64,000 bases of DNA from Eledone cirrhosa (Eukaryota), in contig CAXHJY010000680.1 in NCBI GenBank assembly GCA_964016885.1, positions 1 through 64,000 of the forward strand. The letters run 5' to 3'. A model generated the notes under the pieces. The model was given only the letters and a program-made list of their open reading frames with translations, did no database searches and was not told the DNA's origin. Below, one piece after another: positions 45,581-59,674 of the stretch (positions are counted from its first letter, which is position 1; every line of letters begins with the position of its first letter). The position numbers were made by a program, and so were the translations under genes.

Positions 45581-46096
45581 TAGTATATTTGGCAATATAC
45601 TGTATGCTTAATTAAAAGCATTTTGAAGACTTTACGCTATTGTTTTCAAGTAGTGACTATGTCACTTACTTCTTTTCTCAACAAACAAAGGGAAATAAGT
45701 TGACAGATGTCTGTTTCATACTGTTGGTAATCATCAGAGCTTAGCACTCGGCTTTGCCTGTTGAAAATTATAAATGCTGGATTCTTATAGAATTCCAGTA
45801 ATATTTCAGAGCACCAATTCTAATTTTCAATTTTTGCTGGACCGGCAATTGCTCTGTATAATCAGTTCCTGATTATTACTGGAATTCTATAAGAATCCAA
45901 CATTTATAATTTTCAACAGACAAAGGCGAGTGCTAAACTCTGATGATTACCAACAGTATGAAACAGAGATCTGTCAACTTATTTCCCTTTGTTTGTTGAG
46001 AAAAGAAGTAAGTGACATAGTCACTACTTTAAAACAATAGCGTAAGGTCTTCAAAATACTTTTAATTAAGCATACAGTGTATTGCCAAATATACTA
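45581..46096. mobile_element. ~220-bp-arm inverted repeat carrying a hammerhead in each arm (PLE inverted terminal repeat)
   Basis: Arms ~45581-45803 and ~45874-46096. The motif CT-CTGATGA-T-TAC-caaca-GTA-T-GAA-ACAGA-ga-TCTGT-C (GUC site) is at 45936-45980 (+) and 45697-45742 (-). Confidence 0.85.
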
Positions 46097-54772: not shown

Positions 54773-55488
54773 TATTAGTATAATTAGCTCAAACATAACC
54801 AAATACAAAAGATATTAAAAATTTCACGGTATTTAATTGGTCGCTTCTATTTGACTTAATATTTGAAAACAACGTCCCTTTCTTCTTTCTTTCTTTCTTT
54901 CATTCTTTCCTTTTTGCAGTTACGTCTTCCCTCTTCTCTCTTCTATCTCTCTCTCTCTCCTTCTTCTATCTTCTCTTCTTTTTCTCTCTTCTTCTTTCTT
55001 CTCTTCTATCTCTCTCTCTCTCTCTCTCTTCCTTTTCTCCCTAACACATTTAAATATTTAAATATTTATGTACGTATGTGTTTATTTATTTCTTCTTACA
55101 TTTTCTCATACTCACCCCCTCCTTATACTTATGTCTCGCTCCACATCCTCTTCTTCATCATATTTAAGTTTATCATGTTATTATTTGTGTATATAAATAT
55201 TGAAATTTGTTGTAATAAATCACTGCCAATACTGGAATTAAACCATCAAGACCGTTGAGGTATGTCATACATCAATTCATATATTTTATCTGATGAGGAC
55301 GTACTGAAAAAACAGCACAGTACCTCCGAAATATATATAATAAAACATATATTTTGATTCTGTGAACGTCTTCATTTATTATTATTTTGAATAATATTAA
55401 TAACTCCAGAAAACTTCACTGTAGAGTGCTTTGAATCTATTGTAAAACTATATTCATTGAGTAATCAATGAACCATATTAATATTTGG

Positions 55489-58128: not shown

Positions 58129-58241
58129 TACAAAGAAAGCAATGTGTTTGTCTGTGTTTATCAGTATGTAATAATGTACCTATGTATGTATGTATATGTA
58201 TGCATGTAAGTATATATAAATTTGTATATATATATATATAT

Positions 58242-58306
<65 letters not shown>

Positions 58307-58308
58307 CA

Positions 58309-58415
<107 letters not shown>

Positions 58416-58488
58416 GTGTATGTGTGTGTGTGTATGTATATTTATATGTATATATATGCATATGTATACACACGCATATATACATATG

Positions 58489-58591
<103 letters not shown>

Positions 58592-58645
58592 ATATATCCT
58601 ATTATATCATATATTTATATATATGTATATATCTTTATATATATA

Positions 58646-59051
58646 AATAAAAATAGACAAGGGTTAAAATGTCCTCTTCAGTAGTCTTCTGATTTATTGT
58701 TGGTATTTCGACGCATTAAAGACTAGATACCTAAAATCAGTGCGAGTGATAACTGAATTAAGTTATCGGGACAGTGGGAAAAGACTTATGCCCACGTGAT
58801 TCATTGACTTGTCTCTATTTTCCCCTCTTTTCGTTGCATACCACCATGTTTTTGTTTCCTTCCCTCCGTTTTCCCACTGTCCCGATAACTTAATTCAGTT
58901 ATCGCTCGCACTGATTTTAGGTATCGAGTCTTTAATGCGTCGAAATACCAACAATAAATCAGAAGACTACTGAAGAGGACATTTTAACCCTTGTCTATTT
59001 TTATTCATATATTCATGTTCGCAACAACGCAGCACGCCATTTTTCATTCAC

Positions 59052-59054
<3 letters not shown>
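58646..59054 (+). mobile_element. PLE-like 3' end with ~137-bp 5' inversion, embedded in (TA)n
   Basis: Arms ~58646-58782 and ~58869-59005, then a short tail and (TA)n. Same layout as 18760-19138. Confidence 0.8.
58911..58983 (+). ncRNA. hammerhead-like motif with reversed strand order; mirror copy at 58668-58740 (-)
   Basis: GGTAT-C-[T/G]AGTCTT-t-AATGCGTC-GAA-ATACC-13 nt-AAGACTA-CTGAAGA-G-GACATT. Confidence 0.7.
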
Positions 59055-59100
<46 letters not shown>

Positions 59101-59149
59101 CATATATATATATATATATCCTATTATATCATATATATGTATATATGTG

Positions 59150-59251
<102 letters not shown>

Positions 59252-59345
59252 CACATATATACATATATATATGATATAACAGATTATATATATACATATA
59301 TATATATCCTGTTATATCATATATATATGTATATATGTGTATATG

Positions 59346-59381
<36 letters not shown>

Positions 59382-59403
59382 CATATATATATGTATATAT
59401 ATG

Positions 59404-59456
<53 letters not shown>

Positions 59457-59593
59457 ACATATACACATATATACATATATATATGATATAACAGGATATA
59501 TATATATCTATATATATGATATAACAGGTATATAATTATATGATATACACACATATATATATATAAATGCATACATATATATCCTATTATATC

Positions 59594-59674
<81 letters not shown>

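Follow-up and report, generated by a model that had tools for sequence, protein, structure and literature searches.

Hammerhead ribozymes whose core blocks follow the order site, GAAA, CUGA (blocks S, G and C, hence type SGC) have been described as cleaving in vitro at 0.007-0.19 per min, and type CSG, taken from two metagenomic sequences, was also validated in vitro in that work (PMC10085705). In Penelope-like elements (PLEs), hammerheads are described as usually having an extra base between A9 and 10.1 (PMC4209133), and the hammerhead of the Anolis Poseidon element is reported to need protein and to be dispensable for insertion in vitro (PMC11167929). PLEs of the Naiad clade have been reported without canonical hammerheads, some of them carrying a core or 'half core' that fitted no descriptor, and 5' truncation, inversion, and (TA)n tracts are given as a PLE signature in the same report (PMC8557442). 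Here, we analyzed a 64,000-nt stretch of the Eledone cirrhosa genome (hereafter, the window), one locus of which carries a hammerhead core in reverse order. Hammerhead numbering and kink-turn position names follow standard nomenclature throughout.

The locus consists of two inverted copies flanked by (TA)n tracts, a microsatellite at 59058..59670 and a similar tract at ~58220-58640. On the plus strand, 58783..59057 is a 5'-truncated copy of a retrozyme-like, non-coding tandem unit of ~530 nt, recognized by blastn against natural units and by unit structure, with its 3' end running into (TA)n. On the minus strand, 58639..58782 is an inverted 5'-truncated copy joined to it head to head (arm alignment and blastn), as in the Penelope-type 5' inversions described in PMC8557442. 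An alignment of the two arms spans 144 nt and contains 3 mismatches, and each arm reads GGTAT-C, a stem I strand, GAAA-TACC, a stem I strand, and CTGAAGA-GGAC. A sequence-only reading of the window had claimed a hammerhead core in reversed cyclic order, cleaved after a C and lying in a Penelope-type context, and this much was borne out: both arms contain the full core (CUGAAGA, GAAA, U-C) in the order U-C, GAAA, CUGAAGA, C17 lies at the predicted site (58925 on the plus and 58726 on the minus strand), and (TA)n flanks, 5' truncation, and inverted copies are all present. The same reading took the strand order to be undescribed, a claim to be given up if the literature already held it; it does, as type SGC, which cleaves in vitro (Eckert 2023, PMC10085705). 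The motif also extends ~42 nt further on its 5' side than had been proposed (58878-58981), and the construct put forward for transcription (58660-58745) would lack the clamp strand and hairpin described below.

From 5' to 3', the fold that we propose for the complete reverse-cycle, split-block hammerhead of the plus arm (58878..58981; alignment, helix counts, and covariation) would comprise a clamp strand X, a hairpin P2, the 5' strand of stem II, a bridging strand, the site block, a 4-nt linker, the GAAA block, a second bridging strand, CUGAnGA, and the clamp partner. Strand X (TGTCC, 58878..58882) pairs with GGACA at 58977-58981, directly 3' of the CUGA core (covariation helix 1), and its variable pair is G-C in 83/101 and A-U in 14/101 genomic copies. 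P2, the hairpin of a four-way junction, occupies 58884..58903 (helix 2, two-sided change in 4/7 pairs, also found by MFE folding). The displaced stem II 5' strand (Y) lies at 58906..58910 and its partner at 58936-58939, a pairing supported by helix 3, by 355/404 paired cells between this upstream strand and the strand before GAAA, and by a second lineage (see below). The 5' strand of the helix bridging stems I and II ('I' of Eckert) follows at 58911..58917, with its partner at 58956-58962 (helix 4, two-sided change in 5/6 pairs). Block S (58918..58925), delineated from per-copy helix counts and the kink-turn tally, contains the short strand of a kink-turn, the stem III 5' strand, U16.1, and C17, with the predicted cleavage site at 58925/58926. 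A stem I strand, the 4-nt linker, and the stem II 3' strand ending at C11.1 fill 58926..58941 (helix 6, two-sided change in 3/6 pairs). Block G (58942..58955) includes the GAAA core, present in 98/101 copies although partly fixed by the search pattern, the stem III 3' strand, a 3-nt bulge, and the long strand of the kink-turn (kink-turn tally). Finally, 58963..58976 carries a stem I strand and the CUGAAGA core, i.e., the 5' part of the split block C (arm alignment and per-copy counts). As the stem II 5' strand is thereby placed ahead of the cleavage site, a four-way junction divides the CUGA block in two.

The minus arm likewise contains a complete ribozyme (58670..58773; arm alignment, block-order descriptor, and blastn), with a predicted cut between 58726 and 58725. 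The descriptor called this arm SGC and missed the plus arm because of a mismatch in its first stem I pair (58926). The G usually found at kink-turn position 1b is replaced by A in the plus arm (58953) and in the minus arm as well, leaving A.A at 1b.1n in both. A transcript across both arms is predicted to form a 144-bp hairpin (-244 kcal/mol) that would bury both ribozymes. The inverted pair is probably inert, and the locus is a decayed insertion that reveals its family and a poor test substrate.

We evaluated the fold on 116 aligned copies of the main lineage (lineage 1), of which 101 could be parsed and 15 were dropped, and computed covariation on 27 representatives. In these representatives, the 104-nt fold paired 90.7% of cells and displayed two-sided changes in 15/34 pairs (100 such cells), while slid controls paired 25-46%. 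Its covariation was 0.298 vs 0.150 in shuffles (0/500), a control that overstates significance because the copies are related. The upstream stem II strand, 5'/3' clamp, hairpin, and bridging helix paired at 84-94%. Across the 101 copies, stems I and III, both claimed from the window alone, had 587/606 and 479/505 cells paired, the bridging helix 579/606, and the clamp 397/404. Stems I and III adjoin the core, the words of which are partly fixed by the search patterns, and H17 is C, A or U, never G. The pseudoknotted fold that the sequence-only reading had suggested fits the covariation-supported helices. Stem III shows no two-sided change within lineage 1, its sequence being fixed by the search pattern, and the clamp and upstream stem II helices have one covarying pair each. 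Loci L051-L080 were chosen on clamp words, and three rows of the covariation alignment are one base out of register in their 3' part, which lowers helices 1 and 7. MFE folding, which cannot display pseudoknots, finds nested helices only (P2, the bridging helix, and stem III), with weak z-scores of -0.99 and -2.39. At A9/G12, stem II of lineage 1 amounts to one pair plus a nicked 4-bp helix: position 11.1, next to G12, pairs with the base after CUGAnGA in 85/101 copies (G-C 32, A-U 28, G-U 14, U-A 11) and by either partner in 90/101, frequently as an isolated pair; copies with G10.1-C11.1 are a minority. Taken on its own, the revised fold is in our judgment very probably correct.

In lineage 1, the loop that links stem III to the bridging helix fits the kink-turn consensus with a 3-nt bulge. 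Among the 101 copies, position 1b.1n is G.A in 92, 2b.2n is A.G in 64 or A.U in 35 (99/101 with one or the other), and U.U is the commonest pair next to it; A.U at 2b.2n is described as a folding-competent variant, as in Kt-23 (PMC2790904). No kink-turn was found in lineage 2 or in the non-cephalopod Naiads examined. Judged from these sequences, a kinked geometry with coaxial stacking appears plausible, in which the kink-turn would bend stem III so that it points to the distal ends of stems I and II, and the bridging helix of the main lineage would join these distal ends in place of the usual loop-loop contact.

Next, we considered how frequent the motif is across the genome. A pattern fixing stem III and the core words only had 9,322 exact matches in the 3.0-Gb genome, compared to a single match for the reversed pattern and 9 for the same core words in canonical order. 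The count of the reverse-order motif is therefore far above chance. In a DNA similarity search of the same genome, 40 of 1,062 candidates were scored, all of them 95-100% identical. The window subfamily is a minor one, a 24-mer of it having 121 exact matches. A pattern allowing other stem III sequences at 16-nt spacing gave 68 matches, nearly all of them decayed lineage 1 copies, and two matches in a metagenome scan both lay within one phage-like ORF and lacked the stems, and were attributed to chance. In contigs of another organism (runs X1 and X3; query L024:1010-1700), a related family was detected at high depth, with a GCGAA variant before GAAA. A focused Rfam scan of the motif region returned no hammerhead, and the whole-window scan was dominated by microsatellite matches; this negative result carries no weight, since a control region of the window that contains a canonical-order motif returned no hammerhead either. 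Other motifs in the window include one canonical-order, type I-like family with an AT-rich stem III at 55290 (+), 42645 (-), and 12547 (+, degenerate), the first two of which were called CGS, and an inverted pair of canonical-order motifs at 45737 (-) and 45940 (+), with a palindromic stem III and an insertion layout like that of the main locus, both invisible to Rfam. Minimal PLE-type hammerhead motifs lie at 7379 (-) and 28266 (-), the latter with a damaged GAAA.

A second lineage was also identified. It comprises 109 matches in tandem units of 632-753 nt, and a blastn comparison of these units to those of lineage 1 gave no match. We parsed 65 of 99 distinct copies, in which stem I was paired in 302/325 cells with U-A/A-U covariation and stem III (GATG/CATC) in 246/260. 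The site is GUC in 48/65 copies and GUU in 11. Stem II forms 5 bp from the upstream strand against G12 (316/325 cells, vs 139/325 when drawn from the CUGA block), and the lineage carries G10.1-C11.1. The core words CUGAnGA, GAAA, and U-H are present in both lineages, the search patterns having fixed part of them. All of these lineage 2 percentages depend in part on anchored parsing, and the weight of the evidence lies in the same fold being formed by entirely different stems in the two lineages. Separately, L108:500-1560 contains a ~520-nt tandem unit with GAAA upstream of a CUGACGA core, possibly a third lineage.

The motifs lie in non-coding tandem units of 420-750 nt with Penelope-type insertion marks. 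Same-strand motifs are spaced by 417-637 nt in 12 cases and by 2.1-2.9 kb in three, two of which contain a nested insertion. The units are pyrimidine-rich, with one ribozyme each, and no RT or endonuclease motif or ORF was found in the units of either lineage; the antisense strand of the window-subfamily unit (L003-L030) has a purine-rich, stop-poor, low-complexity frame that is likely compositional. Copies are 5'-truncated and terminate in (TA)n, and many are accompanied by a second copy in inverted orientation. These marks, i.e., (TA)n insertion, partial tandems, and 5' inversion, are not diagnostic of Naiads because they are shared with other PLE clades. The 3' ends are fixed, with 80/89 falling 60-139 nt past the site, and this strand is therefore the template. 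Many copies run through the site, and intact motifs are kept at 3' ends. In lineage 2, the interval -5..+5 around the site contains 16 of the 5' ends, compared to 27 in -60..-6 (p=0.008), a test prompted by 4 loci of which 2 are inside the test set. Long lineage 1 copies display a weak 5'-end pile-up (14 vs 7 and 6 per 50 nt), and the window subfamily none (6 vs 3 junctions, 2 at the site, counted by eye in the first 100 matches listed for each). The clustering in lineage 2 could equally result from RT stalling or microhomology.

Regarding the machinery that may mobilize these units, no intact Naiad was found in the Eledone cirrhosa genome, nor any ORF with an N-terminal GIY-YIG and a C-terminal RT joined to the motif in the loci examined. 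Genome-wide searches for Naiad RT motifs gave no match for one motif and 21 for a second, vs 54 for its control; four of the 21 (L142-L145) are decayed Naiad-type RT remnants, 70-77% identical to each other and with many stops and frameshifts, and no ribozyme was seen downstream of them. Since the repeats are young and no intact Naiad was found, another PLE clade may mobilize them, or the motif search may have missed the partner. PLE ORFs near motifs (L031, L044, L046, L049/L081, L050), considered as carriers, proved to be separate or nested insertions. At L081:1406-4629, a long PLE-like coding region with two open frames (400 and 617 aa) is inserted next to a motif copy, a (TA)n tract separating the two; it is a candidate for the mobilizing clade.

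We then compared the motif to 54 Naiad consensi (PMC8557442, supplement S5), in which passages with CUGAnGA were parsed by eye rather than by program; the tally omits the first three occurrences of two search words and words broken at line ends. Within these bounds, 16/54 consensi parse cleanly as reverse-cycle hammerheads. The split form with all helices was seen in nine, namely Amil, Aacu, and Anas (near identical), Obim, Ovul, and four others placed by file part only (two in part 12, and one each in part 19 and among the Clytia entries). An intact CSG arrangement with bridging helix was seen in six (Nbra-1, -2, and -3, Hcon, and two in the nematode part), and SGC in one, in the spider part. 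Bfor and Ptep were partial fits, six further cores had no clear fold by eye, and the remaining consensi, bivalve entries included, showed no 3'-end core in the passages parsed. The P2 loop word of lineage 1, its kink-turn strands, the base plus GGA after the core, and the linkers recur in Naiad_Obim and Naiad_Ovul, whose stems are all different from those of lineage 1. Because the same loop and linker words go with different stems, the lineage 1 motif is likely homologous to the octopus Naiad ribozyme. The exact octopus-Naiad-type motif had no match in the Eledone cirrhosa genome. The nematode Naiads of supplement S5 carry perfect type-CSG hammerheads with long bridging helices, and this class may, speculatively, be the source of the two metagenomic CSG sequences of Eckert. 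Within the literature on permuted hammerheads, Penelope/Naiad elements, retrozymes, and kink-turns, drawn mostly from outside subscription journals, the sources read contained neither a link from Naiads to permuted hammerheads nor a split block C; the supplementary alignments of Eckert could contain split-block variants.

Taken together, we consider it probable that the motif is a monomeric, self-cleaving, reverse-cycle hammerhead with a split block, i.e., a Naiad 3'-end ribozyme carried by non-autonomous derivatives. The permutation would correspond to the reversed SGC/CSG cycle opened between A9 and 10.1, a branch point matching the extra base of PLE hammerheads, with stem II staying a nicked helix and X and P2 stacking beside it in a four-way junction. 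Read as a closed chain, this cycle would pass from the stem II 5' strand through the bridging helix, S, G, the bridging helix again, and CUGAnGA, returning by way of the clamp and hairpin. Cleavage, RNA circles, and a mobilizing partner are what we infer from DNA sequence in the following scheme: the ribozyme would be the 3'-end motif of Naiad-clade PLEs, multimeric transcripts of the tandem derivatives would be cut to unit-length RNAs and probably circularized, and a Penelope-type RT/endonuclease would copy these into (TA)n sites.

Alternatively, the fold may be under selection but protein-dependent or vestigial, acting mainly as an RT recognition or initiation element, which we regard as unlikely. 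This would accommodate the single-pair base of stem II in lineage 1, a feature set against the GUC site and G10.1-C11.1 of lineage 2. It would equally accommodate intact motifs at 3' ends, the many copies that pass through the site, and the missing 5'-end pile-up of the window subfamily; the 5' ends of lineage 2, however, cluster at the site. Precedents exist in the protein-assisted, dispensable Poseidon hammerhead of Anolis (PMC11167929) and in a report in which 8/9 retrozyme dimers did not cleave (bioRxiv 10.64898/2026.07.22.740005), but all catalytic nucleotides, and H17 as C, A or U, persist between lineages that have no stem sequence in common, which speaks against this alternative.

Whether the helices form within one copy is a distinct question. 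A domain-swapped dimer, in tandem or in trans, would replace the intramolecular double pseudoknot, and covariation cannot separate cis from trans among identical copies; the units are tandem, metazoan PLE hammerheads are thought to be dimeric (PMC4209133), and the P2 of the window subfamily comes close to a palindrome. On the other hand, stem III has its full 5 bp, the linkers match the monomeric SGC of Eckert, all partners lie inside 104 nt, and the single-copy Naiad ends parsed contain the whole fold, so that we consider a dimer improbable. Even less probable is an ordinary SGC with an intact CUGA block and local stem II, which would make the upstream helices incidental. This was in effect the stem II of the sequence-only reading (GAC/GTC plus ATT/AAT), which failed outside the window subfamily and was not conserved in the flanks of 20 loci or among the 116 aligned copies: it pairs in 24.7% of cells in the 27 representatives and in 122/404 or 131/303, depending on register, in the 101 copies, in addition to the low count in lineage 2. 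In the window subfamily, where alone it can be drawn, GAC/GTC can form 3 bp (-4.6 kcal/mol stacking) and give G10.1-C11.1, and junction migration could make it the local register. A local hairpin, GGACA/TGTCT, also exists 3' of the core there; as a canonical-looking stem II it was rejected, having no GAAA downstream and being confined to this subfamily. Finally, an assembly artefact, or short words brought together by chance in a single amplified repeat, would fit a family descended from few masters and the absence of an Rfam hammerhead, but is already refuted by independent lineages, given the compensatory changes between subfamilies, the second lineage, the occurrence in unrelated phyla, and the contigs of another organism.

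If the self-cleaving, split-block reading is true, it would answer the puzzle of Naiads that lack canonical hammerheads yet contain stray cores, and the split-block permutation plausibly accounts for the Naiad half-cores. It would also extend the known non-circular permutations, so far a few hundred sequences of environmental origin, by about ten thousand loci of a single animal genome, and break the three-block rule of the permutation scheme with a seventh natural arrangement. The kink-turn would provide a concrete route for stem III to meet the I/II helix, a geometry left open by Eckert et al. for some SGC. Censuses of ribozymes and retrozymes in invertebrates that are based on types I-III would be undercounts. 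We see an even balance for and against a broader proposition, in which reverse-cycle hammerheads would be standard across much of the Naiad clade (CSG in nematodes, SGC in spiders, and split-block forms in cnidarians, crustaceans, and cephalopods) and would drive retrozymes unseen by type I descriptors, with the cephalopod kink-turn maybe placing cleavage under an L7Ae-family host protein. The strand order itself is known. Relative to the literature covered, the novelty lies in the split-block permutation, in its great abundance within the genome of an animal, and in its likely association with Naiads, three points that the sequence-only reading had missed.

Among the systems described in the literature, minimal type I PLE hammerheads (PMC4209133) share the 3'-end position and the extra base after A9, but have canonical order, a vestigial stem III, and a dimeric form, whereas the motif here has reverse order and a full stem III. 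Non-LTR retrozymes (PMC7229834; bioRxiv 10.64898/2026.07.22.740005) share non-coding tandem units with one hammerhead each and a proposed origin as PLE derivatives. They are, however, defined and found by type I descriptors, which cannot see a reverse-order motif, and circular RNA is shown for them, while the units here are known from DNA alone. Naiad PLEs (PMC8557442) share (TA)n targets, partial tandems, and 5' inversions, and the octopus Naiad 3' ends share the fold, loop word, and linkers, but the copies here have no ORF. Type CSG follows the same reverse cycle, and the split form lies between CSG and SGC; unlike the present family, CSG was described from just two metagenomic sequences, which were attributed to no host element. 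The closest match, type SGC (HRIMA-1, PMC10085705), shares the block order, the full core, a short linker between stems I and II (4 nt here), and the bridging helix. In SGC as described there, block C is intact and assumed to be uninterruptible, whereas here one stem II strand precedes the site block, and the interruption at A9/10.1 is occupied by a clamp helix and a hairpin. That report has SGC from metatranscriptomes only (583 sequences) and from no known organism's genome, in contrast to the at least 9,322 chromosomal copies found here.
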